NCBI GenBank assembly: GCA_047404135.1 | Contig: JBDOIT010000001.1 | Coordinates: forward strand, 21,055 to 85,054 | DNA: 64,000 bases | Direction of reading: 5' to 3' | Source: Rickettsiales bacterium | GTDB taxonomy: Bacteria; Pseudomonadota; Alphaproteobacteria; Rickettsiales; JABSSG01 | Shown here: positions 3,887-29,797 of the stretch, one piece after another | Layout of the letters: every line of letters starts with the position of its first letter | Position numbering within the stretch: the first letter of the stretch is position 1 | Position numbers and translations under genes: made by a program | Notes under the pieces: generated by a model | What the model saw: only the letters and a program-made list of their open reading frames with translations | Database searches by the model: none | What the model was told of the DNA's origin: nothing

Positions 3887-4278
3887 TATTTTTCTATTAT
3901 TGCTATTGCGTTAGCATATTCTCGATCATCTGTAATAGATAGATGAATCGAATACTCACTAACATTTAATCTTTCTTTTATATATGAATCAAGTTTATCG
4001 TCTACATCGTAGAATGGTTTTCCAGTTTTGTCATTAGATATAGAGATGTTTTTTAATGTGACGTCTTTGTTAAAGCCGGTTCCTGTAGCTTTGGCAAAAG
4101 CTTCTTTTGCAGCAAATCTTTTTGCTAGATATTTTATTCTGCTACTAGCAGCTAAAGAATTAAATTTTTCTATCTCTTTATCGCTGAGCATCCTATTTAT
4201 AAAGTTTTCCTGATGTTTATCGAATATCTCTTCGATACGTGAAATCTTTACCAAGTCAGTTCCAATACCAATGATCAT
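3886..4278 (-). CDS. acpS: Holo-[acyl-carrier-protein] synthase
   Basis: GIGTDLV, RFAAKEAFAKA and GKP motifs. Confidence 0.95.
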   Translation of the reverse strand: MIIGIGTDLVKISRIEEIFDKHQENFINRMLSDKEIEKFNSLAASSRIKYLAKRFAAKEAFAKATGTGFNKDVTLKNISISNDKTGKPFYDVDDKLDSYIKERLNVSEYSIHLSITDDREYANAIAIIEK

Positions 4279-6180: not shown

Positions 6181-7002
6181 TTAGCTTAAGCCTTCGTGTT
6201 CTCTGAGTTTATCATCTACTGCTTTGAGATGAAGTGATTTTAACAGCCTTAGAAGTTCCTGCCTCGCTGCTATGTGAGACATGCTAAGGGATAGCATGGG
6301 TTTGAGTTTTTTATGCTTAAGATCAAGTAAGGTAATTCCATATAAAAATAGCTCTTTAAAAATAACTCTTTCACCAAATCCGGAGGCAAGGCGACAACCC
6401 ACGCGTTTTGAGAGCTCTTGTACTACTTTTTCAATATTGCGTTTATTTTTAGAATATACTGCAGCAATGCGGCTTCTGACTACAATCCAATCTAAGGATT
6501 TTTCCGCTTCTTTTGCTCGATTGATTTTTTGTTCCCAGATCATTTGGCTGTAAATTCCTGGCCTGATAATTTTTAAGTCTTTTGCACTTACGTTGGCAAG
6601 AAGATCCAGATCAACAAAGCTATCATTTACTGGAGTTATAATTATATCTGCTTTGGAGTGGGCGAAAGAAGATAAGCTGTTGTTTACCCCTGGTGTATCT
6701 ATAATTATAAAATCAGCTTTTCTGTAATGTTCCTCTAGAATTTTTGATAACTGACCTTCCTCATCACCTTCATTTGGGTGGATCGCATAGTGGCGTGGCA
6801 AGGGTATGTCTAAGTTCAGATTTTCAATTGTGCTTACTCTGTTTTCTAAATATCTAGTCAGAGAGAGCTGGCGCACATCTGTGTCAATAGTGGTAACTTT
6901 GAATCCAAGATAGCATAGGGAGATAATCAGGTTCATGGCAGTAGTGGTTTTACCAGCCCCACCTTTTTCATTTCCAATTACTATAATTTTTGTGTCTGTC
7001 AT
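6181..7002 (-). CDS. mipZ: Division plane positioning ATPase MipZ (ParA family)
   Basis: GNEKGGAGKTT, RQLSLTRYLENR, TPVNDSFVDLDLL, PGIYSQMIWE, ERVIFKELF and SHIAARQE are MipZ-type motifs. Confidence 0.9.
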   Translation of the reverse strand: MTDTKIIVIGNEKGGAGKTTTAMNLIISLCYLGFKVTTIDTDVRQLSLTRYLENRVSTIENLNLDIPLPRHYAIHPNEGDEEGQLSKILEEHYRKADFIIIDTPGVNNSLSSFAHSKADIIITPVNDSFVDLDLLANVSAKDLKIIRPGIYSQMIWEQKINRAKEAEKSLDWIVVRSRIAAVYSKNKRNIEKVVQELSKRVGCRLASGFGERVIFKELFLYGITLLDLKHKKLKPMLSLSMSHIAARQELLRLLKSLHLKAVDDKLREHEGLS

Positions 7003-9294: not shown

Positions 9295-10488
9295 TTACAG
9301 TTCTTCGTGTGTTGTTATATCCCCGCTTTCTTCTATTTTTTTATCCTCAGTACTTATATATTCCAAGGTTGGTATGTATGCGTAATTAATACTTGCTGTT
9401 ACTAGTATACCCGCTGCACCTCCTATCACCGCTCCTAATGTAGGATTTGCATTAGAAGATCCTTCTTTTTGTATCATGTCAACAATGTATTCTATAGATT
9501 CTCCTATTAATCCATCAATTGGTTCAACGAATAGGGGGCTTAATACCAAAGACGTATTTAGGTTATCCTCTATTAGATGAGCTTTATTATATCCGAAGCC
9601 ATTCCATGATCCAGAGATTAGCCGTGATAAGGAAATAGATTTATCTGGATGCAAATAATCTACTGCAGCATATTTTGCTACACCAGATAGTGTATCTATA
9701 GAAGTATGGTATATCTCTGAGTCAGATGCAGGTTTTGCAATGGATGCTGCCATGCACTTTGTGAAGTGAGCAGCGGAAATAGATGCAACATTGAGATACG
9801 CAGCTTTTCCTACGCTTTTTGGGTTTTTATTTCCTTTTAGCCCAACCTCTACCCCATAGGTTATGGCAGCCATTACAGGGGCAGCTATAGTTATGCTCTG
9901 TGTAGTACAGATTTTGACATTCTCTACAAAAAGATCAGTGTTTACTATGGGGTCTATTGTAGGGTCATATTCTCCAAACGAAGTTCCCTCTAAGTACTCT
10001 ACGGCCTTGTTGTATATTGGGAATAAAGGGAAGCTAAGATAAACTCCTGCTTCTATCCCTTGGTAAATACCTTTTGAAGAGATGAAGTTACATGAGGTTT
10101 CTATGATAACAGGTGCGATATAAAATAGTAAATTCGCTGAAGAGGAATTTTCTGTTGCACTAGGTTTTAGATCGGCTTTGTGGTGGTAAGCAAGTGCATT
10201 TAAGATCCCCGATACGAATGAGGAGGGTGATGTGTTCATGACTTCCGTAGACATAATGGATGTTTTTGTTACTCCAGCGATAGTTGCACCCATATTTACA
10301 ATTGATTCACTATAACCGGAGGTATTTGTTGAGAATATCTTGGTGTATTCTATAATAGAGCAACTGACAAAATGCGCTAATACAGGTAGAAAGATAGGTT
10401 TAGCGTTGTCATTCAAGTGTTTGTAGGACGCTATAGGGGCGATCAGAGTGGTGCTCTGTATTCCACATTTCACTAATGGGTGTAACAT
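9295..10488 (-). CDS. Hypothetical protein with an apparent internal duplication; C-terminus SGDITTHEEL
   Basis: 397-aa ORF preceded by a good sigma70 promoter; no recognised family. Confidence 0.75.
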   Translation of the reverse strand: MLHPLVKCGIQSTTLIAPIASYKHLNDNAKPIFLPVLAHFVSCSIIEYTKIFSTNTSGYSESIVNMGATIAGVTKTSIMSTEVMNTSPSSFVSGILNALAYHHKADLKPSATENSSSANLLFYIAPVIIETSCNFISSKGIYQGIEAGVYLSFPLFPIYNKAVEYLEGTSFGEYDPTIDPIVNTDLFVENVKICTTQSITIAAPVMAAITYGVEVGLKGNKNPKSVGKAAYLNVASISAAHFTKCMAASIAKPASDSEIYHTSIDTLSGVAKYAAVDYLHPDKSISLSRLISGSWNGFGYNKAHLIEDNLNTSLVLSPLFVEPIDGLIGESIEYIVDMIQKEGSSNANPTLGAVIGGAAGILVTASINYAYIPTLEYISTEDKKIEESGDITTHEEL

Positions 10489-10603: not shown

Positions 10604-10723
10604 ATAGCTCTTTTTAACCTACAGATTGTTTGACCAAGTTTATGTAAATAAAGATAAGTATGTTTGCCTACTGTAGATACTTTTTTGTGATGGTTTTTAT
10701 GAAAATTGTTGTTGGTAGGCAAA

Positions 10724-10755
10724 CAAAAAGGGTAGATAAAACTCTACCCTTTTTG
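10724..10755 (-). terminator. Rho-independent terminator
   Basis: CAAAAAGGGTAGA / TCTACCCTTTTTG perfect stem just after the stop at 10773. Confidence 0.8.
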
Positions 10756-10772
10756 TATAAAGATTGTTTTTG

Positions 10773-11492
10773 CTAGACTTCTTCTTCTGCCGCAGTTTCT
10801 CCATTTGTGTTTATTGCATCAATGCTCTCTTCTATGCTCTGAGCGGTTTCAGCGAGTGATTTAAAATGTTCTATTTTTGTATCCATTTTTGCGAGAACAG
10901 TTCGTAAGCCTGACGGTAGCCCAGTAAGATCTTCTGCTGTTAAATGGTCATCACTCTCATCAATTTTATCTAGTATACCTAGGATTTTTTTTGAATAAGT
11001 GATATTTTCAGCTTTTGCTATATCCAAAGCTTCTTTTAGGTGCTCTGTACTTTCAGCTGCTTTCTGTAAGTAGATAATTTTTTTATCCATAGATAAAATG
11101 CTTTTCTTTAGATGATCTGGGAATCCTTCTAGATCAGACTCTGTTACACTTTCTGCGTTATCCTTGACTATGTCAGTGATATAATAAAATTTTTCTAGCA
11201 ACTCTAACTTATCGTTTTTTGCGGTGTCTGCTATATTTTTAACGCTTTCTACTAGCTTTTTAGTTTTTGGAGGTAGTTCAGATATGATCTTATCTAAATC
11301 AGTTCCATATTTTTCTGCTAAGTCCTCATGTAGATCACAGATCTCTTCGATATGATCAGACGCTATGCCCGCGTATTTCATAAGCACATCTGCTTGTTTA
11401 GGAAAAACTTGCGCAAGAATGCTAATTCCTGCTATTAGTGTTGTCCCAATAACGGTTTTATATGCATTTGAAGTGTCAATAATTTTTGCCAT
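10773..11492 (-). CDS. Hypothetical helical protein with an N-terminal hydrophobic segment and two ~67-aa repeats
   Basis: Start MAKIID with AGAGGA SD; repeats VTESDLEGFPDHLK..SMDKKI / LTAEDLTGLPSGLR..KMDTKI. Confidence 0.8.
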   Translation of the reverse strand: MAKIIDTSNAYKTVIGTTLIAGISILAQVFPKQADVLMKYAGIASDHIEEICDLHEDLAEKYGTDLDKIISELPPKTKKLVESVKNIADTAKNDKLELLEKFYYITDIVKDNAESVTESDLEGFPDHLKKSILSMDKKIIYLQKAAESTEHLKEALDIAKAENITYSKKILGILDKIDESDDHLTAEDLTGLPSGLRTVLAKMDTKIEHFKSLAETAQSIEESIDAINTNGETAAEEEV

Positions 11493-11521
11493 CTTTCCTC
11501 TTATGATTAAGTTAAGAGTAC

Positions 11522-11555
11522 ATGGTATCACCTAACGGATTAAGAATAAGTTAAC
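11522..11555 (-). promoter_or_regulatory. CtrA box plus -10 element
   Basis: TTAA-GAATAAG-TTAAC at 11540-11555; minus-strand TACCAT 12 nt downstream. Confidence 0.7.
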
Positions 11556-11669
11556 ACAGTAAATATTTTGAAAAACGAGGATCCATACATAGCTACTCTA
11601 CTATATATTATTTCTAGGTTTATAACTAAAGAGTCAGATGATTTTTATATATTTCCCTACGAAATTATA

Positions 11670-12029
11670 CTACATATCTCCTCCGCTGTGGTTGTCACTA
11701 CCATGCTCACCCATCGCTTCTGTAGTAGAAGAAAAATGTAGAGCATGATAGCTTTCTAGATCAGAAATTCTTGCTTCAAATTCTTTAAGCTTAGAGTTTT
11801 CTTCTCTGCAGACTTTGAGTTCTACTGCTTCATCTGCTAGCATCTCTCTCCATACATCCTTGTCCTTTTGGCAGCCTTTTTGCATTTCTCTTACATCATC
11901 TAAGATATTTTCTGTTGGAGTTGGGTCAGATCGCAATTGTACGTAAGAGCCTACTAGTGTTGCCAAGACACCAGCTCCAGCTGCCGCTATACCCATATTC
12001 TTGCTTGTTAAATGTTCCTGTAAGCTCAT
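11670..12029 (-). CDS. Hypothetical protein with an N-terminal TM segment and coiled coil
   Basis: GAGAGG SD; GIAAAGAGVLATLVGSYV hydrophobic segment; ends AMGEHGSDNHSGGDM. Confidence 0.75.
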   Translation of the reverse strand: MSLQEHLTSKNMGIAAAGAGVLATLVGSYVQLRSDPTPTENILDDVREMQKGCQKDKDVWREMLADEAVELKVCREENSKLKEFEARISDLESYHALHFSSTTEAMGEHGSDNHSGGDM

Positions 12030-12059
12030 AAAGGCCTCTCTGATTCAAGTTAAAAATAC

Positions 12060-12092
12060 ATAGTATCAACAAAGAAGTTAATAATTAATTAA
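12060..12092 (-). promoter_or_regulatory. CtrA box plus -10 element
   Basis: GTTAA-TAATTAA-TTAA at 12077-12092; minus-strand TACTAT 12 nt downstream. Confidence 0.65.
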
Positions 12093-12279
12093 ATATAGAA
12101 TATTATAAAAAATATTATCAAGAAGTATCTTTTAGGTACAAAAATGCTCCAGCTACATGCAGATAGCTCTATAATACAGGGTTTGTTAAACCATGTATGT
12201 AGCAGTAAGAATATACTAAAGTGAATTAAGTTGACTTTGTACGCCCATCTATTACGCTCATATAGCATCATCATTTTAA

Positions 12280-13992
12280 ATGTTTTTTATGAAATCAGAA
12301 ACAGTTAGGCTATTTAAGAAATCTTGGAAATTTATCATTCCGTTCTGGAAATCAGAAGAGACGTATAAAGCAATCGGGATGTTGGCTTTAATTGTCTTGC
12401 TTGTTCTATGTAATATAGCTCTTTCTGTTCGTTTGGCTTATTGGAGTAAGGATTTTTATAATGCTTTAGAGAATAAAAGCTATGTGGATTTTATATATCA
12501 GATTAAGGTTTTCTTAGTATTGCTTTCTATTCTAATTCCTGTTGTGTTAACTCATATAGTTTTAACGGGGTTTTTGACATTCCGCTGGAGAGAATGGATG
12601 ACAAATAAATTTCTTAAAAATTGGACTGAGAATGATACCTATTACCATGTGATGCTTCATGTGGATAAAGTTGATAATCCAGATCAAAGAATAAGTCAGG
12701 ATATAAGTGTATTATGTACTCAGACGATAGGGTTATTCCTATCTTTTTTAAGAGAGATAGTGACGTTATTTTCTTTTGCATTTGTTCTATGGACGGTTTC
12801 TAGCAGTATCCCTTTAAAAATATTTGGGCATAGTTTTAATATCCAGGGGTATTTAGTGTGGGTTGCTTTTATATATTCTGTTTTTGGTACGGGGATTATT
12901 ATAAAAATTGGTAAGCCTTTGATTCAATTGGATTTTATGCAAGAGCATTATGAGGCAAATTTCCGTTATTCACTTATTAGATTGCAGGAAAAAAGAGAGG
13001 AGGTAGCTTTATTCCAGGGCACTCAGCCTGAGATCAAGAATCTACATGATGCTTTTGATTTTATTCGTAAAAATTATTATGATCTTATTAAGCGTAATGC
13101 TTATATCACTTTGTCTTTAAGTTGTTTTGGGAACCTTTCTCAGCTAATTCCTATTATTGCTGCAGCTCCTATGTATTTTGCTGGGATTGTAACTTTAGGT
13201 GTTGTGATGCAGGTATTAAGTTCATTTGAGAAGGTAAGAGATTCCTTCTCTGTAATTGCAAATAATTTTACTACAATTGCTTCTTGGCGTGCAGCAACGA
13301 AGCGCTTGTTGCAATTAGTTCAACATATGGAGTTGGCGGATCAAGATGTAGCAGATAGCCACATTAAATTCTCTAATAATAACAATAATATAAAATTCAC
13401 GAATCTGAGCTTAAAGAAGCCAAATAGCAGACCTATGTTGAAGGGGATAAATTTTTCTGTGGGAGAGCACGAAAGAATACTGCTTATGGGAAATAGTGGA
13501 GTGGGGAAAAGTACAATCGTACGTGCGATGAAAGGCTTGTGGACATACGGTAGTGGAAAGATAGAGCAGCCTGGTAATGTTTTCTATGTGCCTCAGCGTC
13601 CTTATATGCCGGTTGCCACATTGCATGATTCTTTGATTTATCCAATTTTACCGAGCAAATATAAAAGTGAAGATAGTCAACTTATAGAGTTGTTGGATTT
13701 GTTCAAGTTAAGCCACCTGACTGAACATCTAGGTGAAAGAAAAGACTGGAGCACTACGCTTTCTTTGGGTGAGCAGCAACGTATATCTTTTATTAGGATA
13801 TTGCTGAACAAGCCGAAATGGGTTGTGATGGATGAGCCGACATCATCTTTAAATAAGGATCTAGAAGAGATGTTATTTAATACTCTCCTGTCCAGAATTA
13901 AGGATATAACTATGCTAACTGTTGGGCATTCGGAAACATTGAAGAAGCATCACAAGAAGGTAATAGACGTAGAGAAATGGTCAGTCCTTTAG
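12280..13992 (+). CDS. ABC transporter with fused permease and ATPase (YddA / BacA-like, ABCD family)
   Basis: DNPDQRI, EANFRYSL, GNSGVGKST, PQRPYMP, LSLGEQQR and DEPTSSL motifs. Confidence 0.9.
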   Translation: MFFMKSETVRLFKKSWKFIIPFWKSEETYKAIGMLALIVLLVLCNIALSVRLAYWSKDFYNALENKSYVDFIYQIKVFLVLLSILIPVVLTHIVLTGFLTFRWREWMTNKFLKNWTENDTYYHVMLHVDKVDNPDQRISQDISVLCTQTIGLFLSFLREIVTLFSFAFVLWTVSSSIPLKIFGHSFNIQGYLVWVAFIYSVFGTGIIIKIGKPLIQLDFMQEHYEANFRYSLIRLQEKREEVALFQGTQPEIKNLHDAFDFIRKNYYDLIKRNAYITLSLSCFGNLSQLIPIIAAAPMYFAGIVTLGVVMQVLSSFEKVRDSFSVIANNFTTIASWRAATKRLLQLVQHMELADQDVADSHIKFSNNNNNIKFTNLSLKKPNSRPMLKGINFSVGEHERILLMGNSGVGKSTIVRAMKGLWTYGSGKIEQPGNVFYVPQRPYMPVATLHDSLIYPILPSKYKSEDSQLIELLDLFKLSHLTEHLGERKDWSTTLSLGEQQRISFIRILLNKPKWVVMDEPTSSLNKDLEEMLFNTLLSRIKDITMLTVGHSETLKKHHKKVIDVEKWSVL

Positions 13993-14216
13993 TTGCTGAG
14001 CTCAACAACCGTTTTTCCGTTTACAGATAACCCCACGCCATCTGCAAGTAAGTATCTTCCGTCCGGAAGCAACGTTGTTTTGCCTTTGCAGCTATAATAA
14101 GCCTTATCTTTTATGATATTAATTTTAGTTCCGTCAGGTAAGTAAACTACCTGATCTTGGAATGCATATGCAGAAAAATTGAGTAATAGTGAGGCAATAA
14201 TAAAAAATTTCTTCAT
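13989..14216 (-). CDS. Small exported protein with LPDG beta-hairpin repeats
   Basis: Signal peptide MKKFFIIASLLLNFSAYA; LPDGT / LPDGR / LADG repeats. Confidence 0.65.
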   Translation of the reverse strand: MKKFFIIASLLLNFSAYAFQDQVVYLPDGTKINIIKDKAYYSCKGKTTLLPDGRYLLADGVGLSVNGKTVVELSN

Positions 14217-14402
14217 GACTTCTATCGTGATGTTACGGGAAGTCAGTAGAGCATAATATTCCATTTTTTTCAACAAATTCTATCGAAGGTATGATATGTT
14301 GCATGTTTTTACAAAAGAAAATTTAAATTAATATAACATTGAAGTTTTGCTGATATCTGGATACGACAACTCCTAGAAAAGATGTATAATCTATAATTCT
14401 AG

Positions 14403-14594
14403 ATGATTAAATCGATACATATGATTGATGATAGAGTGGGAATAAGATTGATGCGCAACCCATTCACAGAGAAGCCATTTATAAAGTTCTATGACACAAA
14501 GCGTGTTGGTGGAGACATAATAAATAGTAAAGCAGTGAAAATATTGAAACTGCAACCCCTAAAAACTTCTACAAACACTTTTTCTTGTTTATAA
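14403..14594 (+). pseudogene. C-terminal fragment of an HK97-family / GTA-like major capsid protein
   Basis: IDDRVGIRLMRNPFTEKPFIKFYDTKRVGGDIINSKAVKILK resembles the RcGTA capsid end (LRDPFSAKPHVLFYATKRVGGDV..AIKLLK); the rest of the gene is absent. Confidence 0.75.
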
Positions 14595-14616
14595 TTTATA
14601 AAAAACAAGGATGTTT

Positions 14617-14916
14617 ATGGTAGAAAGAAAGAAAGCGGCAGTGAAGAAGCCTGTAGTTAAGAAAGCGGCAGTGAAGAAGCCTGTAGTTAAGAAAGCGGCA
14701 GTGAAGAAGCCTGTAGTTAAGAAAGCGGCACCTAAAAGAGCTAAATTTCCAAAAGCTATTCAAAAGGGAGTTGCGCATTCACCAAGGAAGCCTGATATTC
14801 CATCTAATATTTTGAACAAGGAGAATCACGAAAACATGGCTCATATTCAAGAAAATGAGAATAAACACGGATTCTTTAAAAAGGTAATGCATTTCTTTAT
14901 GGGGAAAGGCAAGTAG
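14617..14916 (+). CDS. Histone H1-like (Hc2-type) Lys/Ala/Val/Pro repeat protein
   Basis: (KKAAVKKPVV)x3; AAGGA SD; amphipathic C-terminus GFFKKVMHFF. Confidence 0.7.
   Translation: MVERKKAAVKKPVVKKAAVKKPVVKKAAVKKPVVKKAAPKRAKFPKAIQKGVAHSPRKPDIPSNILNKENHENMAHIQENENKHGFFKKVMHFFMGKGK
14629..14730 (+). repeat. 30-bp perfect coding tandem repeat x3.4
   Basis: AAGAAAGCGGCAGTGAAGAAGCCTGTAGTT repeated. Confidence 0.95.
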
Positions 14917-14925
14917 TTCAGCAAT

Positions 14926-14965
14926 ATAAAAGGCCTCCTTTCTGAATGAGAAGAGACCTTTTTAT
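14926..14965. terminator. Bidirectional terminator between convergent genes
   Basis: AAAAGGcCTC...GAGaCCTTTT imperfect stem with A/T tails. Confidence 0.6.
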
Positions 14966-14983
14966 ATGCAAGAATATTGGTGC

Positions 14984-15670
14984 TTAGTGTATTGTTGCAG
15001 TAGATTTGCATTCTACTCCATGTTTCTCAGATATCCCTGAAAGGAAAGACCATAATGCTTGAGCGGTTTCTTTTGCTGCTTCTAGCGCTTTCTTCTGATC
15101 TTTTTTGCTTAATCTATCTAGTAACTTCTCGCACTCTTCTCTGTGCCAGACATCTGCTTCTTCGTGAACATAAAAGAATTTTAGAGCTTTTGCACTGCTA
15201 ATTCCGTAAAAACTCTTTAAGCCATCAATTTTTGTTCTAGCGATTTCAGGCACTTGGTGTTCATAAGAATATATAGAAGCTAGTGCCTCCGGATAAGATG
15301 CCCTACAATTTTTGAAGAATGTATCTATTAGGCTGGATGTGTATGAATCAACAGATGACCTGTCTAACTCTTCATTTGTATTTCCCGCTTCTATTGCAAA
15401 GTTTTTCCATAGAGTAGGATGGTCAGTTCCGTTGTTTTCTTCGTCATTTAAGTTTTCCAAAAGAATTTTACGGTCTTCTATATTTTCACAAATAGAGTGA
15501 GCTGTACTAATATATCTCGGAAAAGCCTTTACATGGTGATAATATTGACAAGCGTAATCTTTGATCATTTCGTTTGTCAATCCTCCTTCATTCCATGTTT
15601 TATAGAATGGATGCTTTAGTAGGTTTAAAGGTTCTAGTTCTTTTTGGAGAAAAGTAGAAAAGCTTTGCAT
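14984..15670 (-). CDS. CADD-family heme-oxygenase-like diiron protein (pABA / folate; TenA-PqqC fold)
   Basis: LLKHPFY..W..G.L, QYYHHVKAFPRYIS, ENL.DEE...DHPTLW, YEHQVPEIARTKIDGL and FF.VHEEADVWH motifs; AAGGGG SD. Confidence 0.92.
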   Translation of the reverse strand: MQSFSTFLQKELEPLNLLKHPFYKTWNEGGLTNEMIKDYACQYYHHVKAFPRYISTAHSICENIEDRKILLENLNDEENNGTDHPTLWKNFAIEAGNTNEELDRSSVDSYTSSLIDTFFKNCRASYPEALASIYSYEHQVPEIARTKIDGLKSFYGISSAKALKFFYVHEEADVWHREECEKLLDRLSKKDQKKALEAAKETAQALWSFLSGISEKHGVECKSTATIH

Positions 15671-15768
15671 AGTCATACCCCTTTGGTTTGTTAAAAAATC
15701 TTTAAAAGATGATATTACTATGTAGAAAAAACACAAGATTTTTTTAGAATATGTTTTTATTAGTAGCA

Positions 15769-15800
15769 TTAAGATTTTGTTAACAAGAGGGTTCTAGTAT
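15769..15800 (+). promoter_or_regulatory. CtrA box plus -10 element
   Basis: TTAA-GATTTTG-TTAAC at 15769-15784; TAGTAT at 15795-15800. Confidence 0.7.
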
Positions 15801-15835
15801 TTTGTCTATCACATATCTCATAAGAAGGAAAAATT

Positions 15836-18800
15836 ATGTACAAAGGTCGCAAAAAATCTTCTGGAGGAGATTCCTCTGGCGTAGAAAGCCATGGTAATGA
15901 TTCAGGCGCTGATGGATCACTTTCTGGTGATGGTATATCTGTGAGCAGTACAGAGGGATCATCTGATGGCTCAGGGGGCGAGGATACTGATTCTACTAGT
16001 AGCTCAGAAGGTATATTGGGAGGTAGCGGTTCGTCTGATTCTGAGGATTCCGAAGATGAAATAGAGGAGGCATCTAGCCCTCTTCGTCATTCTTTAGGAA
16101 GCATTCAATTTGTCGTTTCAAATCCTAATCGTGAGATATTTGGCTCTCGATCCTGCATATTGAGCTTCATAAACATGGTGGCAGTTTCTTATATGCTGAA
16201 TGGAAATATGAGTGGTTTGGCGAGTTTTCTAACTTTTATTTCTAGTCTTGTTGGAATACATGTATTCAGAGCTCAAATTATGCCAAGGGTTCGTGAGTAT
16301 GTAATGAATCACCCAGATCTTCAAGTGTATATAGGACCAGTTGTTGGAGTGCATAGGAGGAATAGGGATTCGTTGGTTGGCCAGCTACGTGGCCCAACAG
16401 AGGTAAATATTGCTGCTATTACAATGAATTTACTGGTATCGGGTCTCTCTGGCTTTTTGACCGCTAGAAGTTTGGAGTTGGGATCTTTAAGCGGAGTAGG
16501 TGGTTCTGCGGTATATTATCATCTATTCAATAGGCTGATTGCTATGGTTGCGAGTTATATAGATAATGGATCTGATGAATTAAGGAATAGGATTATTAAT
16601 GCTCTTGCAATGTTTGGTTCAGAAATTAGAGATAGGGTCGGTATTCAAGCTGTATTAAGGTGGGTAAGAGATTCGATGCCTCGTTCTCAAGATCCTTTGC
16701 CATCAAGGACTGGGGAGGCTGTCAGGAGACAAGGCCTACAAGAAAGGGGCGCAGATATAGTTAGTGCTGTGGCAGGAGCTGTTGTGTTTTTTTCGAATAT
16801 CTCTGGGTCTGGTGTTCATTGGGCTGCAATACTTGGCTCTTTTGCATGGGGAGGAACCAGGTTGCCATTATTTGCTTATATGGGATTAATGAGAATGGCT
16901 CAGCAAGCTGAGATTCGCGCAAGATTCCTACGGGATGGTAATAATGATAGACTGGAATTAGCAAGGGCATTAGTTCTAGGTGGGTCTGCTACCTTCTTTC
17001 TGCCTGAAGAATTTTTGGCAACAATAGGAATACTCGGTGGTCGTCTATTAGGTATCATGAAATGGATACCATTAATACTCATATCAAAAGCCTTACCTTC
17101 CACTGGACAGAAAATGTTGTTATCTGTTATAGGCACTAATGTTGCTGCTTCGACAATCAATTTAGCATATGCAGTTGAGGCTATTTTAGATCCAAATGTC
17201 CCACCAGAAGATGTACTAAATCGTGTGCATGATAATAGCCCAGTTGGCAAATTAAAAAGAACGACTTTTTTTTCATTCTGGGTTTTTGTACTTTACGTAA
17301 TAATTGCGGCTACCACCGCTATTTTGTTTAAAAAATATGACGTTGTATCATCTACGGACTCGTTGAAGGCCCTATATACTGGTATTGTTATTTTTGGTGT
17401 TGTTTTTATGGTGATAATGACTTTAATCGCATATTCAAAGATAGATATTTGGGGTCAAAAAGCAGAAAATAATTGTTGTATAAGGCCATTACTAAAAAGT
17501 GCCTGTTTTCGTGGGTGGTGGGGGTATACTGGCGGAAGTGAAGGTCAAACTCCTGAGGAAAGGGAGGCAACAGCAGAAGCGCAAAGAAGGGAAGATGCCA
17601 TACTAGAAGAGGAGGCAAATATTGGAATGAGGGGCACCATAAGAAATAGAATAAGAAGACATCTTAGAGAAGCATCAGTTCCACCTGAATATCAGAATAG
17701 AACCATACCTTTGCAAGATGGAACAAATATGATTCTGACTCTTATAGGGGATGCAAATCACTTAAGTCCTAATACTGATTTTCTGAGATATAATGTGGAA
17801 TCCCCAGTACAAGATCCAACTACTTTGCATATAAGGGAAGTTAGGATCAGCACAAGGGCAAATAATAATTATACTTTGGAAATGAGTGATGGTAGAGCCA
17901 TAATTCGGGAGGGGGAAGACATCAGGATTATGGATAGAGATGGGAATGAGGAATATAATTCTGCAACAGAGCCAGCAGAAGGGCCACAACTAAATCTTCA
18001 AGATCTTGTAGGGAATTTAATGGGAGCTCCAGATTTATCTGTTCCAGAAGATACTCGTCCTGGTACGCCGGAGGTAGATGGAGTGTTTGTTCCTACTCCT
18101 ACTAGGAGAGAAAGTCCTCATGATGGGCCCCGAGATAATGGCAGTGTAGAAGATATCGATCTGGAGGAGATGTCCTGGGATGGAGAGGAAATTTTTAGAG
18201 AGACTCGAGTGTTGGAAGAGGAAAATGGCGATACCTTAGATGATATTACCCAGGCAACCACTGGATTGCTGGAAGAGGAGAATGACGCTACTGCATCTGA
18301 GCTAGGTGACGCAGAAGGTGAGGATAATCAATGGGTTGATATTGATGTTGATGCGGAATTCGCTTCTATGAATGATTATGCACCGCCCCCGGAGCAAGAG
18401 GGGCATGAGAATTCTGCTGAAGATAGTAATGGCGGTTGCTGTAGTGGTTTGTTTGGTATGCGTAAGAGACTTTCTAATATCAGAGCATCGGAAGCTGCGA
18501 CATATGAGGACCAACCGCCTTCTAGACAAATTACGATAAGTATATACGAAGATGAGGATGAGGATAATATGTTATTCGGTCTATCTACACCTTTGCTTGG
18601 AGAAAAAGGTGCAGATGATTCTTCGTTTCTTGGTGGCTCTCCAGGTGATAAAACAGATCAAGATAAGACTGGTGGGTCTGCAGAAAACCCAGCCCATAAA
18701 GACATCAAAAGTATGACCCCTTTTGCGTTGTATGAGCATTTTCAAGAAAATTCTCCTGAAACATTAGAAATTTTTCAACCTGCTTATGATTTTAACTTGA

Positions 18801-19186
18801 AGCTCGAGGGTGATGAGATGGAGTTACTTAAAAGAGATGATGATACTGAGGTGGGTGAAGTAAGGGCGCAGATGCGAGACACCATAGATGCAGAAATTAC
18901 AGTAAAGGATGTGCATGATTATGAAGGTGATGGGCCAATAAAACCGGAAAGGAAGAAGAGAGAAAAGGTGATAGATGGTTTTGATAAAGACTTTTTTAAA
19001 ACTGGGCCAATCAACCCGAAGAGATATGATTATTTTAACCATCTAGAGAGCCCCACTAAAGGGAGTCATATTGGAGATCCAGACGAGTGTAAATACGAGA
19101 TGTTTGGCTATTGTGCAGAGAATGTTGGCGAGCAGCTTATGGGAGCATTTTTACTCGCTCCTATGATGTTTGCTAGTTCTAAGTAA
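15836..19186 (+). CDS. Large hypothetical membrane protein with acidic disordered termini; putative effector
   Basis: 1116 aa; AAGGA SD; Ser/Gly/Asp-rich N-terminus, several hydrophobic helices and an acidic C-terminal half. Confidence 0.85.
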   Translation: MYKGRKKSSGGDSSGVESHGNDSGADGSLSGDGISVSSTEGSSDGSGGEDTDSTSSSEGILGGSGSSDSEDSEDEIEEASSPLRHSLGSIQFVVSNPNREIFGSRSCILSFINMVAVSYMLNGNMSGLASFLTFISSLVGIHVFRAQIMPRVREYVMNHPDLQVYIGPVVGVHRRNRDSLVGQLRGPTEVNIAAITMNLLVSGLSGFLTARSLELGSLSGVGGSAVYYHLFNRLIAMVASYIDNGSDELRNRIINALAMFGSEIRDRVGIQAVLRWVRDSMPRSQDPLPSRTGEAVRRQGLQERGADIVSAVAGAVVFFSNISGSGVHWAAILGSFAWGGTRLPLFAYMGLMRMAQQAEIRARFLRDGNNDRLELARALVLGGSATFFLPEEFLATIGILGGRLLGIMKWIPLILISKALPSTGQKMLLSVIGTNVAASTINLAYAVEAILDPNVPPEDVLNRVHDNSPVGKLKRTTFFSFWVFVLYVIIAATTAILFKKYDVVSSTDSLKALYTGIVIFGVVFMVIMTLIAYSKIDIWGQKAENNCCIRPLLKSACFRGWWGYTGGSEGQTPEEREATAEAQRREDAILEEEANIGMRGTIRNRIRRHLREASVPPEYQNRTIPLQDGTNMILTLIGDANHLSPNTDFLRYNVESPVQDPTTLHIREVRISTRANNNYTLEMSDGRAIIREGEDIRIMDRDGNEEYNSATEPAEGPQLNLQDLVGNLMGAPDLSVPEDTRPGTPEVDGVFVPTPTRRESPHDGPRDNGSVEDIDLEEMSWDGEEIFRETRVLEEENGDTLDDITQATTGLLEEENDATASELGDAEGEDNQWVDIDVDAEFASMNDYAPPPEQEGHENSAEDSNGGCCSGLFGMRKRLSNIRASEAATYEDQPPSRQITISIYEDEDEDNMLFGLSTPLLGEKGADDSSFLGGSPGDKTDQDKTGGSAENPAHKDIKSMTPFALYEHFQENSPETLEIFQPAYDFNLKLEGDEMELLKRDDDTEVGEVRAQMRDTIDAEITVKDVHDYEGDGPIKPERKKREKVIDGFDKDFFKTGPINPKRYDYFNHLESPTKGSHIGDPDECKYEMFGYCAENVGEQLMGAFLLAPMMFASSK

Positions 19187-26623: not shown

Positions 26624-26696
26624 TATTTTATTAATTTTTTTGTCAGATAATTTTGATTATCGTGTGAAAGTAAGTATAGGGTTGGTAGTATTAAGT

Positions 26697-27080
26697 ATGG
26701 TTAAAAAAACGGTTTTGATAGCGGAAGATAATGAGCTTAACATGAAGTTGTTCAAGGATTTGTTGGAGATGAAAAACTTCAACACAATATGTATTGAAGA
26801 TGGTCATCAGGTTTTTGAGGAGGTTGAGCAGAAAAAACCGGATTTAATTTTGATGGATATAAGGCTGAACGATATATCTGGTTTGGATATTATCAAAAGA
26901 ATAAAAAGTATAGACGAATTAAAGCATATACCCATTATTGCTTTGACGGCATATGCAATGAAGTCAGATAAGAAGAAAATCCTAGACTCTGGATGTGAAA
27001 GTTATATGGCTAAGCCTATTTTTATAGATACTTTTTTTAAGGAAATTGAGAAATTTATATCTTTTAGCGTTTCTTCTTAG
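26697..27080 (+). CDS. divK: Single-domain response regulator DivK
   Basis: KTVLIAEDNELNMKLFKDLL, PDLILMDI, IPIIALTAYAMKSD and KP motifs. Confidence 0.85.
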   Translation: MVKKTVLIAEDNELNMKLFKDLLEMKNFNTICIEDGHQVFEEVEQKKPDLILMDIRLNDISGLDIIKRIKSIDELKHIPIIALTAYAMKSDKKKILDSGCESYMAKPIFIDTFFKEIEKFISFSVSS

Positions 27081-27424: not shown

Positions 27425-29797
27425 ATGAATTTCTTCAAGCGCCTTATATTGCTTTTTGTTACTATGCTTTCTTTTGTGTCATACGAAGCTGGTTTTGCTC
27501 GTAGTATTCATCACGGTTGTAGTATTAGTGGAGCAGACTACGGAGAATGCGGTAAAGCATCTGGCTTAGATCATGCCGGTTTAACAGTTGTACCGGATTT
27601 TAAGGATTCATATGTGTGCCGCAACGATTCCACGGGTTATCCATATAGGGTAGGTTTTTCTAATTCTTGTATGGTTCCGGCTGGTGATCATGATCCACTC
27701 GATACAACTTGTATAACAACTCCAAATTTAATAGGGGAGGTTGTAGACACCATTACTACGGTTGGTATTGCTGTGCAGATGAGGAAGAATTTCTGTAGCT
27801 TCAAAGCTGGTGGTATAAATATGGAGGGTGCTATGGTTAAGTCCACCATATTTAATCAGTGTAATATTGGAAGTGCTAAGCAGCAAATACAATGTCGTTC
27901 TGATGTTCTCAGGGGAGTTAAATCTGATGGTACTCATATGAAATCTTATGTAGATTTAAAGGATCATATTACAGGGGATCTCTGTCAGGCAATGCCTAAC
28001 TTAAACAAAGCAGCGGTAGACTCAGATGGAAAATATGTTTTTTACCAAGGTAAGCAGGTATTTTGTCCAATCATGCGTTGTAATATTCCTACGGATACAA
28101 TGATTTCTAAGTATTACGATAAGACTGGCCCTCGTACTGCCATAATGTCTGTTTTGGCGGCTGAAGTGTCAGGATTCATTGGTGCTGGAGCAGCTGCAAT
28201 AGCAAGTGCTCTTACTGGCGATTGTTCTGACTTGGTGGAGTTAGGTGATGGAGATACCACTGGTGTTGCGATGTGGAAAGCTGTTAGGCTGAAAGGGGTA
28301 TTTCAGGGAGATAAAGTATGTACGCAAATGTTATTTCCAACGGGCTACACAACTCTTGCATGTAAGCCAAGGGTGATTCCAAAAACCTATTATGCTCCTA
28401 CAGATAACTGTTATGTACTTAATTCGTCCTGTGTAAGTGGGGAGCATCATTCTAAGGGCTTCTTTCCTCTGACCGCAACATTGATTGAATGTATGAATGA
28501 TTTGGTTACTAGTATATTTAAAACACCAAAAGATTCTACATGTCCTCAGAATCCTTTGGCGTCTTTTCAAAATTCATTAAAGAACACGGTTAAAGTATTG
28601 CTTGTGCTTTATGTTATATTCTTTGGTATCCGAATTGCTATGGGTGGAGCGATGCCGAAAAAGGTTGAGTTTTTTGTATTTATTTTGAAGTTTGCATTAG
28701 TTGCATATTTTGCCGTTGGTGGAGTTGGAGATACTCATGAAACTGGACTTGAGCAAGCTTATGATGGCGCAATAGCAGCCATGCATTCTTTTTCTAACAT
28801 GGTTGCCGGTAATGATGATATGAGTGGAGACCCCGGGTCTGTGAGTTCTGGGCTATGTAGATATAATTTAGGTGAATATCAAGAGGGCTATGACTATCTG
28901 GCATTGTGGGATTCATTAGATTGCAGGATTGCTTTTTATTTGGGGTTTGCGAATCCGGTGGTTGGTAACAATGGGGGTGTAGGTATCTTGAATGCTGGTG
29001 TGTTTGGATTGATATTCCCACTAATGTTTGCATTTGCTATGCCGTTGTTAGTATTCATGTTGGCTTTTGCGGTATTGTTGTTATCCACCGTTGTGTATTT
29101 TACTCATGTATATGTGATTGCACTAGTTGCTGTATCTATCAGTGTGTTCCTTGGCCCTATATTTATACCTTTTGCTTTGTTCAAAAAAACAAAGGGATAT
29201 TTTGACAAATGGTTAGAGCTTACTATTGCTTATACGTTATATCCTGCGGTTATTACGGCTTTTATCGCTATTATGGTTACTACCTATGATACTGTGATAT
29301 ATAAAGATTGTAGCTTTGAGGGGCACACCAGCGGCTATCAGACGGCATATTGGACATTTAGTCAGCCTATATCGAATGAATGTAAGGAGAGCTTAGGTTA
29401 TATGATGTCTCAGCTTACATCTGGTAGCTCCACAGAAGTTGTAGATGTTGGTAAATTATTTTACTTTAACAGGGTAAAGCATGAGAGCCAGATCTTTGTT
29501 GATTTGCTTGAGCAGTTGATGATTTGTGTATTCTTCATGTTCCTATTCTACTATTTTTCACAGCAGCTTTCTGGTTTTGCTGCTGATCTATCTAAGGCTA
29601 CGAATATAGGGAAACAAGCTATAGGGCCTACAGCTGTGGCAGATAAGGCTATGGCTGCCCTTAAAGGAAAGGATAAGGATGATAAAAAGGATGATAAAAA
29701 GGATGATAAAAAGGGCGGCAAAAAAGGTATCTCTGTATCAGGTAAAGGATCTAAAGAAGCAAAACGGAAGGGTATCAGCGTCTCTAAGGATAAGTAG
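27425..29797 (+). CDS. virB6: Type IV secretion VirB6 / TrbL family protein (rvhB6-like)
   Basis: Signal peptide and Cys-rich N-extension; LVLYVIFFG..., LWDSLDCRIAFY and LGPIFIPFALFKKTKGYFDKWL motifs. Confidence 0.88.
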   Translation: MNFFKRLILLFVTMLSFVSYEAGFARSIHHGCSISGADYGECGKASGLDHAGLTVVPDFKDSYVCRNDSTGYPYRVGFSNSCMVPAGDHDPLDTTCITTPNLIGEVVDTITTVGIAVQMRKNFCSFKAGGINMEGAMVKSTIFNQCNIGSAKQQIQCRSDVLRGVKSDGTHMKSYVDLKDHITGDLCQAMPNLNKAAVDSDGKYVFYQGKQVFCPIMRCNIPTDTMISKYYDKTGPRTAIMSVLAAEVSGFIGAGAAAIASALTGDCSDLVELGDGDTTGVAMWKAVRLKGVFQGDKVCTQMLFPTGYTTLACKPRVIPKTYYAPTDNCYVLNSSCVSGEHHSKGFFPLTATLIECMNDLVTSIFKTPKDSTCPQNPLASFQNSLKNTVKVLLVLYVIFFGIRIAMGGAMPKKVEFFVFILKFALVAYFAVGGVGDTHETGLEQAYDGAIAAMHSFSNMVAGNDDMSGDPGSVSSGLCRYNLGEYQEGYDYLALWDSLDCRIAFYLGFANPVVGNNGGVGILNAGVFGLIFPLMFAFAMPLLVFMLAFAVLLLSTVVYFTHVYVIALVAVSISVFLGPIFIPFALFKKTKGYFDKWLELTIAYTLYPAVITAFIAIMVTTYDTVIYKDCSFEGHTSGYQTAYWTFSQPISNECKESLGYMMSQLTSGSSTEVVDVGKLFYFNRVKHESQIFVDLLEQLMICVFFMFLFYYFSQQLSGFAADLSKATNIGKQAIGPTAVADKAMAALKGKDKDDKKDDKKDDKKGGKKGISVSGKGSKEAKRKGISVSKDK
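29675..29714 (+). repeat. 12-bp coding repeat x3 (KDDK) in the VirB6 tail
   Basis: AAGGATGATAAA x3. Confidence 0.9.

Follow-up and report, generated by a model that had tools for sequence, protein, structure and literature searches.

TTAA-N7-TTAA boxes as candidate CtrA promoters ahead of lineage-restricted genes in a reduced Rickettsiales-like genome

Three genes that belong to no recognized protein family each lie behind a perfect copy of the sequence TTAA-N7-TTAA in a single stretch of bacterial DNA. This sequence is the CtrA box, and passages of PMC6847485 implicate rickettsial CtrA in growth-phase transition. The questions raised by the locus are whether the boxes are working promoter elements, which regulator would read them, and what kind of gene they serve. 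The window referred to throughout is the whole stretch analysed, 64,000 nucleotides (nt) at C1:21055-85054 of the 965,549-bp draft source genome G000 (15 contigs; ~36% G+C; 94.9% complete). The evidence described below indicates that the three sites are probably activator-dependent CtrA promoters in which the box covers the -35 position, and that they would be three of about 15-22 such promoters in G000. CtrA binding and activation rather than repression are inferred from sequence, as would be any timing or secretion. The elements at issue are listed here with the genes that they precede (aa, amino acids).

11540..11554, minus strand: CtrA box 1, perfect TTAA-N7-TTAA, reading TTAACTTATTCTTAA on the gene strand
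11527..11522, minus strand: predicted -10 hexamer TACCAT, 12 nt downstream of box 1
10773..11492, minus strand: gene for an acidic protein of 239 aa (net charge -19; single N-terminal hydrophobic segment, aa 13-31)
12078..12092, minus strand: CtrA box 2, perfect TTAA-N7-TTAA, reading TTAATTAATTATTAA on the gene strand, then C
12065..12060, minus strand: predicted -10 hexamer TACTAT, 12 nt downstream of box 2
11670..12029, minus strand: gene for a 119-aa acidic protein, net charge -10, with one N-terminal hydrophobic segment (aa 12-30)
15769..15783, plus strand: CtrA box 3, perfect TTAA-N7-TTAA, reading TTAAGATTTTGTTAA, then C
15795-15800, plus strand: predicted -10 hexamer TAGTAT, 11 nt downstream of box 3
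15836..19186, plus strand: gene for a protein of 1116 aa, net charge -70, in which acidic low-complexity ends enclose at least 6 hydrophobic segments (aa 126-531)
15691-15705, strand unassigned: fourth perfect TTAA-N7-TTAA box, in the same intergenic region as box 3
14984..15676, minus strand: CADD-family (PqqC/TenA-like) gene, divergent from 15836

Predicted promoter geometry and genome-wide controls

The original prediction placed three perfect boxes at this locus, each 11-12 nt upstream of a -10 hexamer and ahead of genes 10773, 11670 and 15836. The boxes are indeed there, and the hexamers TACCAT, TACTAT and TAGTAT follow at gaps of 12, 12 and 11 nt, as claimed. The assignment of the downstream genes also stands, except that the first ATG is at 11492 and not 11493. 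Each of the three ATGs (11492, 12029 and 15836) lies behind a purine-rich ribosome-binding site. A gap of 11-12 nt puts the -35 position inside the N7 spacer, with the half-sites on either side, and a consensus scan found no sigma-70 -35 hexamer at any of the three sites, as expected for activator dependence. In the mechanism proposed here, a CtrA dimer would occupy the two TTAA half-sites, which are one helical turn apart. With the box lying across the -35 position, 11-12 nt upstream of a TANNNT -10 hexamer, the bound dimer would recruit the housekeeping RNA polymerase, and the predicted transcripts begin ~23-29 nt before each ATG.

Evidence that the arrangement is meaningful comes from counts over the whole of G000. 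For this purpose the gene set consisted of the longest open reading frames (ORFs) of at least 70 aa, chosen greedily (911 ORFs), and the fraction treated as non-coding (175 kb) comprised everything outside these ORFs together with their first 90 nt. In non-coding DNA, TTAA-Nx-TTAA with x running from 0 to 15 occurs 29, 12, 24, 11, 17, 18, 27, 45, 20, 14, 16, 16, 22, 13, 21 and 25 times. At 45, N7 stands above all 15 alternatives (range 11-29, mean 19.0; z = 4.7, Poisson P = 3e-7); coding DNA contains 21 N7 boxes and has no N7 excess, only three-base periodicity. Order-3 Markov simulations of the non-coding segments yielded 13.7 +/- 3.9 N7 boxes, with a maximum of 26 in 200 runs, and the 42 boxes observed fully inside such segments were reached by none of the 200 simulations. 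One-mismatch boxes (45 for N7 versus 15-39 for other spacers) are swamped by background, and because of this the perfect boxes alone are informative.

The distance to the -10 hexamer is likewise non-uniform. TANNNT follows an N7 box at a gap of 11 nt 13 times and at 12 nt nine times, versus two to five times at each gap of 5-10 and 13-16 nt. A composite site can then be defined as TTAA-N7-TTAA, an 11- or 12-nt gap and TANNNT. The genome-wide scan for such sites that was proposed with the original prediction came out in its favour, with 22 N7 composites in G000 against 4, 6, 2, 11, 4, 7, 8 and 11 for N3-N6 and N8-N11. Sixteen of the 22 lie 10-136 nt upstream of the start of an ORF on the same strand; when only composites no more than 150 nt before an ORF are counted, the numbers are 15 for N7, and 1, 7, 1 and 2 for N5, N6, N8 and N9. 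The composite N7 count is also clearly higher than the N8 count in several genomes: 22/4 in G000, 29/11 in the same-genus relative G001, 50/16 in G007 (a different genus), 29/16 in G003 and 51/28 in G005 (another genus). A dispersed repeat with TTAATATCAAGTTTAAAAATTCGCAAATATCGT, present in dozens of copies on many contigs of G002, inflates the N8 control count in that genome.

The original prediction also held that the window has no other perfect intergenic box. This was mistaken, since a fourth lies at 15691-15705, with the start codon of the CADD gene only 15 nt away. Read on the plus strand, it has a TACTAT downstream after a 10-nt gap and is located 130 nt before the 15836 ATG; its function is doubtful. 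Box 3 does not have the canonical gap in the direction of the CADD gene, the nearest TANNNT on that side being 17 nt away.

Nothing resembling a terminator was seen in the stretch from 11670 to the 10773 promoter, so that read-through from 11670 into 10773 is possible. Just past the 10773 stop, at about 10722-10757 of the window, a G+C stem (GGGTAG/CTACCC) set between runs of A and T looks by eye like a bidirectional terminator, and is not among the consensus-scan hits. Contigs from four marine DNA runs matched the window only as short, low-depth pieces. Among them, the variant contig X3 (11940-12094, 13 differences) spans the 11670 promoter, with box 2 too near its end for listed differences, and contig X4 is missing 4 nt at 15750, upstream of box 3.

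Conservation, duplication and the identity of the regulator

The architecture recurs before orthologous genes in related bacteria. The 15836 protein has a single detectable relative among 40 other genomes, located in G001 (31% identity over residues 229-616), where synteny is kept and the gene is again divergent from CADD. A perfect box at L012 5301-5315 in G001 (TTAACAACCTATTAA, followed after 11 nt by TACCAT) lies 48 nt before the ATG of this orthologue, and the remaining spacer around it differs from that of the window. No counterpart of the 15691-15705 box was found in the corresponding G001 intergenic region. Another composite-site gene, at C6 20718, encodes a 200-aa orphan whose orthologues in G001 (53% identity) and G007 (40% identity) each lie behind a perfect box followed after 11 nt by TAGAAT or TAGCAT; no perfect box was found before its G005 orthologue. 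A box, 11 nt and TAAGAT likewise precede the G001 orthologue of the glycine-zipper protein (201 aa) encoded at C4 281. The architecture is therefore kept in 3/3 orthologous promoters examined in G001, where the DNA around the sites has diverged, and in 1/2 from other genera (G007 yes, G005 no). Among further searches, a scan of the metagenome contigs with the alignment of 10773 homologues was without a match, a search of the genome contigs for 15836-related loci was without a match, no orthologue of gene 9295 was found in G001, and L030 was not found in four genomes.

The simplest alternative is chance, namely fortuitous TTAA pairs beside fortuitous TANNNT hexamers in A+T-rich intergenic DNA, with no regulatory role. 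Several observations weigh against the promoter reading, and some of them lean directly towards chance. The four boxes of the window fall below the shuffle expectation of 7.24 +/- 2.54 (at least four were present in 94 of 100 dinucleotide shuffles); TTAA and TANNNT are common in 36% G+C DNA, where TANNNT is a loose criterion; one-mismatch boxes are mostly background; and the 15691 box is not kept in G001. In addition, the gap distribution peaks again at 17 nt (11 sites) and at 19 nt (nine sites), and the N6 control, with its seven positioned sites, is not empty. The N7 composite excess over N8 is absent in G002 (48/75), G008 (52/57) and G004 (38/37), and weak in G010 (67/54), G009 (46/34) and G006 (50/38). 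No orthologue of 10773 or 11670 turned up in the 40 relatives searched, which leaves boxes 1 and 2 without an orthologous promoter for comparison, and the longest-ORF gene calls are crude, so that some start-codon distances are approximate. Against chance stand the enrichment of N7 alone in non-coding DNA, the peak of the gap at 11-12 nt, the correct placement and orientation of most composites before ORFs, and the retention of both box and gap in G001 and G007. All four window boxes are intergenic, and the significance comes only from this position (4/4) and from the genome-wide controls, not from the count in the window. Overall, a purely fortuitous origin is highly improbable.

A second kind of evidence for constraint comes from the first two promoters, which resemble each other well beyond the box:

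11493..11600, minus strand: promoter/leader of 10773, a paralogous copy of the 11670 promoter/leader
12030..12137, minus strand: promoter/leader of 11670, the other copy in this duplicated pair

The homology of these two regions, and the lack of any relationship between the encoded proteins, had already been noticed in the original prediction and are both real. The regions are 77% identical over ~120 aligned nt, beginning upstream of the box and extending to the ribosome-binding site, and the 10773 and 11670 proteins do not align. The further proposal of a reusable promoter cassette does not survive. A 22-nt core of both leaders occurs at exactly two places in the window (0.01 expected), every match elsewhere in the genome has at least 4 mismatches, and the core has no match in the metagenome contigs. 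With two copies only, a genome-wide cassette is ruled out, and because the extended homology is confined to two adjacent genes, the shared promoters and leaders reflect a local tandem duplication rather than a module that is mobile or has been reused. The TTAA half-sites and TAC(C/T)AT are the same in both copies, and the N7 spacers differ and the coding sequences can no longer be aligned; this pattern fits constraint on the kept elements. Beyond this pair, the promoters have no more in common than the box and its spacing, although those of the ankyrin and mraZ genes also share some spacer sequence.

Which protein would read such elements is a separate question. The original prediction presupposed a ctrA gene, and one is present: an ORF on C6 matches the CtrA equivalog NF045991 (NCBIfam) with 397.6 bits against a cut-off of 350. 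It had also placed divK and mipZ in the window, and genes of both kinds are found there:

6181-7002: MipZ
26640-27080: single-domain receiver protein, DivK-like

The CtrA of G000 contains the motif GTVLTKEM, with a valine that appears to occupy the place of T168 in Caulobacter CtrA. A valine in place of T168 is described in passages of PMC6847485 as a rickettsial CtrA signature. According to passages of PMC2877005, the ctrA gene of R. prowazekii complements Caulobacter, and the CtrA binding site is therefore likely conserved. The only box upstream of ctrA itself (L002, G000 C6, about 2300-2345) carries one mismatch (TTATTAAATTGTTAA, ~150 nt ahead of the ATG); a TTAAC half-site also adjoins TATACT there. 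Autoregulation of ctrA may be possible, and is not evident.

Real promoter elements could in principle have another reader, either one of the three other OmpR-type regulators or, if they are an unusual -35 or UP-like element, RNA polymerase itself. Four G000 ORFs carry a Trans_reg_C domain, CtrA among them, and the sequence itself does not identify the binding protein. Moreover, OmpR-family response regulators commonly bind tandem or inverted half-sites ~10-11 bp apart. On the other side, no link is known between the other three regulators and TTAA-N7-TTAA, and the gene set behind the boxes (mraZ heading the division cluster, genes for outer-membrane proteins, an M23 peptidase and a lytic transglycosylase) fits the CtrA regulons of other alphaproteobacteria. 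In the passages cited here, TTAA-N7-TTAA is a specific CtrA box conserved across alphaproteobacteria, rickettsial lineages included. A reader other than CtrA is thus unlikely. Activation by CtrA is preferred because the box geometry covers the -35 position, a sigma-70 -35 hexamer is missing, ctrA is present, and rickettsial and Caulobacter ctrA are interchangeable. The more general claim, that these are CtrA-type elements at -35 as originally proposed, is very probable in view of the N7 enrichment, the fixed gap, the ctrA gene and the conservation before the 15836 orthologue.

The genes behind the boxes

G000 encodes two TLC ATP/ADP translocases, and its type IV secretion genes comprise those for VirB6, VirB8-B11, two VirB4 proteins and one VirD4 (coupling protein), an rvh-type system typical of Rickettsiales. 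Among the sequencing runs listed, G000 DNA occurs in marine metagenomes only, and the nearest named relatives of the CADD gene are Rickettsia and Jidaibacter records (~50% identity). Based on these data, the organism is treated here as an uncultured, marine, Rickettsiales-like intracellular bacterium with a reduced genome of ~0.97 Mb.

The 16 positioned composites precede the three window genes, genes for pentapeptide-repeat, DUF2660, SLT lytic transglycosylase, ankyrin-repeat, porin, MraZ and glycine-zipper proteins, and six family-less ORFs. Further perfect boxes lie ahead of virB3, of a type I secretion ABC gene, and of genes for two additional ankyrin proteins, an M23 peptidase and a receiver-only regulator. 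The predicted regulon would combine envelope and division genes (mraZ, lytic transglycosylase, porin) with ankyrin- and pentapeptide-repeat proteins and a majority of lineage-specific, family-less proteins. The original suggestion that these promoters preferentially precede orphans is borne out: family-less proteins account for 9/16 composite-site genes versus 15/134 comparison ORFs (Fisher P = 9e-5), the comparison set being 143 ORFs (54 from the window and 89 from five random 20-kb regions) minus nine that are box-associated.

Two of the other perfect boxes lie close to secretion genes. The box at C4 80476 of G000 is 53 nt upstream of virB3 (80127-80423, minus strand), the head of the virB3-virB4 genes, and the box at C2 77670 is 42 nt upstream of a PrtD/HlyB-like ABC exporter gene (77726-79477) with an HlyD-like neighbour. 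The canonical gap of 11 or 12 nt is absent from both sites.

None of the 10773, 11670 and 15836 proteins matches a Pfam or NCBIfam family. The 10773 protein has only four metagenomic homologues (60-84% identity) and no usable match in the protein atlas, and the 15836 family has nine representatives among 1.84 billion proteins, the closest of which keeps the hydrophobic C-terminal end. The original prediction called the three genes effector-like and ascribed to all of them a C-terminal motif, which it left undefined. Their C-termini (..GETAAEEEV, ..NHSGGDM and ..PMMFASSK) have no detectable motif in common, and with net charges of -7, -4 and 0 over the last 20 residues of the 10773, 11670 and 15836 proteins, respectively, none has a positively charged tail. 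No eukaryote-like domain or other effector hallmark was found in them by family and atlas matching. The effector-like description is accordingly not supported; the three proteins are acidic, membrane-anchored and lineage-restricted, and their genes are probably co-regulated with cell division and envelope genes.

Acidic tails were also considered. The C-terminal tail of the 10773 protein (10773-10800) contains ..TNGET..E.V, kept in 4/5 homologues. The pattern TGE[TA] in the last 25 residues is found in five G000 ORFs, three of them behind CtrA boxes (~2.3 ORFs expected overall), and endings of the [DE][LVMFI] type are found in 17 ORFs, three with boxes. No conclusion was drawn from these acidic-tail motifs, the numbers being too small and the definitions post hoc. 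Endings in HDEL, TDEL or HEEL, which are like eukaryotic endoplasmic reticulum retrieval signals, occur at C2 67712-69634, C6 47364-48641, C6 69435-70838 and window 9295-10488; DEL ends occur in three ORFs versus ~0.3 by a rough hand estimate from amino-acid frequencies.

Elsewhere in the set, a different kind of C-terminus is frequent. Basic tails containing KG, such as ..SSKGKVINNR, ..KQKGRGR and ..KKGDKEKVHR, are found behind composite sites. By a rule defined post hoc (KG within the last 15 residues and net charge at least +3), such a tail occurs in 8/16 composite-site genes versus 20/895 other ORFs (P = 3e-9) and in 0/15 box-less family-less ORFs, and by a plain charge rule (at least +5 over the last 20 residues) the counts are 6/16 versus 59/895 (P = 5e-4). 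The G001 and G007 orthologues of box-gene proteins also have basic tails. MraZ and the porin pass the KG-tail rule as well, so the rule is not specific, and the three window proteins fail it. Paralogy as the source of the tail-box link was ruled out by a blastp comparison of 19 box-associated proteins with the 911 ORFs, in which ankyrin repeats alone were similar. Positively charged C-termini have been used to nominate type IV substrates of Anaplasma (passages of PMC6414681). Taken genome-wide, the link of composite sites to family-less, basic-tailed proteins is a worthwhile lead.

Examples of the KG tail are encoded at C2 147186-148103, C4 56997-57506 and C6 20718-21320. The VirB6 protein of the window (27425-29797) and an HC2-like protein also end in a basic KG tail. 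The latter is a histone-H1-like lysine/alanine-repeat protein (window 14611-14916) that scores 33.8 bits with Pfam HC2, below the cut-off of 40; its gene has a TATAAT and no box. The G001 orthologue (L012 7827-8274) lies behind a composite site consisting of TTAATAAGTGATTAA, an 11-nt gap and TAAATT.

The original prediction went further and envisaged a portable CtrA cassette through which secreted effectors bearing a common C-terminal signal would be timed to an infectious stage of development. A type IV system is encoded (two VirB4, VirD4, VirB6 and VirB8-11), perfect boxes precede virB3 and the type I secretion ABC gene, the G001 HC2 gene has a composite site, and the family-less and KG-tailed proteins, which are not mutual paralogues, are concentrated behind composites as described above. 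The use of charged C-termini to predict Anaplasma substrates lends some further plausibility, as does the report, in passages of PMC6847485, that Ehrlichia CtrA peaks at the reticulate-to-dense-cored transition. The details of the proposal fare less well. The three window proteins have no basic tail and are acidic and membrane-anchored, the extended cassette exists as two adjacent copies only, the housekeeping genes mraZ, porin and SLT share the promoter type (two of them also passing the loose tail rule), and the G000 HC2-like gene has no box. Furthermore, the tail rule was set after the data had been seen, and developmental forms are not known in this organism. Such a timed effector cassette is therefore doubtful.

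A broader proposal, offered tentatively, is that CtrA could act as a master switch of host interaction. The box, 11-nt gap and -10 hexamer would then drive type IV and type I secretion genes together with unrelated, fast-evolving proteins; the basic 'KG...R' tails on many of these might be an rvh export signal, and the acidic, membrane-anchored window proteins a second, co-expressed class at the surface or host membrane. If this is true, the promoter motif and the KG tail would form a two-feature effector predictor for uncultured Rickettsiales, and secretion would be tied to the cell cycle or growth phase in this order.

Relation to known regulons

The promoter type is not new in itself, as CtrA boxes and regulons are textbook knowledge in free-living alphaproteobacteria and have been described for Ehrlichia. 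What the present genome adds is a single architecture, kept across species, that picks out ~16 genes in an uncultured, reduced genome, more than half of them family-less and half basic-tailed yet unrelated. In Caulobacter crescentus, CtrA boxes overlap the -35 position at class II flagellar and ccrM promoters. The G000 sites resemble these in the location of the box at the -35 place, the lack of a sigma-70 -35 hexamer, an orthologous ctrA and the presence of division and envelope genes among the targets, and the half-sites and 7-nt spacer are identical to those of the CtrA box in passages of PMC6847485. The difference lies in the organism and its targets: G000 belongs to a reduced intracellular bacterium, and its predicted targets are mostly family-less and lineage-specific rather than flagellar, pilus or chemotaxis genes.

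Another close relative of the system is the CtrA regulon of Ehrlichia chaffeensis. There, Cheng et al. 2011 (Mol Microbiol 82:1217) reportedly found ompA/pal, bolA, surE and ctrA as CtrA targets, and not candidate effectors. To our knowledge, no developmental cycle has been described for the present organism, unlike Ehrlichia. In passages of PMC6847485, a rickettsial CtrA likewise has TTAA-type sites before a small regulon, and is linked to the late-stage transition to a resistant infectious form. Reviews and genome papers on these bacteria treat CtrA and effectors separately, and no CtrA boxes before effector genes are reported in the passages searched (PMC7397232, PMC4251998, PMC7789307 and PMC13584714).

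The window also invites comparison with gene transfer agents (GTAs), because its locus is a decayed GTA/phage-head cluster. The Rhodobacter capsulatus GTA is controlled by CtrA. In G001 (L012, contig C40, 8285-12811), capsid, prohead protease and portal genes surround an SbmA/BacA-like ABC transporter gene; in the window, a 63-aa remnant from the C-terminal end of the capsid protein (14403-14594) is all that is left, and orphans 9295, 10773 and 11670 occupy the position of the G001 portal gene. The likeness to R. capsulatus ends there, since no box precedes the G001 head genes, the L012 boxes being at 4124, 5301 and 8260 only.

A functional parallel is a regulon from outside the alphaproteobacteria. 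PmrA, an OmpR-family regulator of Legionella and Coxiella, binds a tandem TTAA-containing site just upstream of the -10 hexamer, before Dot/Icm effector genes. The two systems differ in bacterial class, in regulator and in half-site spacing. A PmrA-like reading of the raised N6 control in G000 was ruled out, as the seven N6 sites precede housekeeping genes, for example that for ATP synthase subunit c. What they have in common is that a box for a response regulator, set at a constant distance from the -10 hexamer, marks many otherwise unrelated host-interaction genes and could help to find them; if the same is true here, the motif would offer a cheap way of nominating host-interaction genes in unculturable symbionts.

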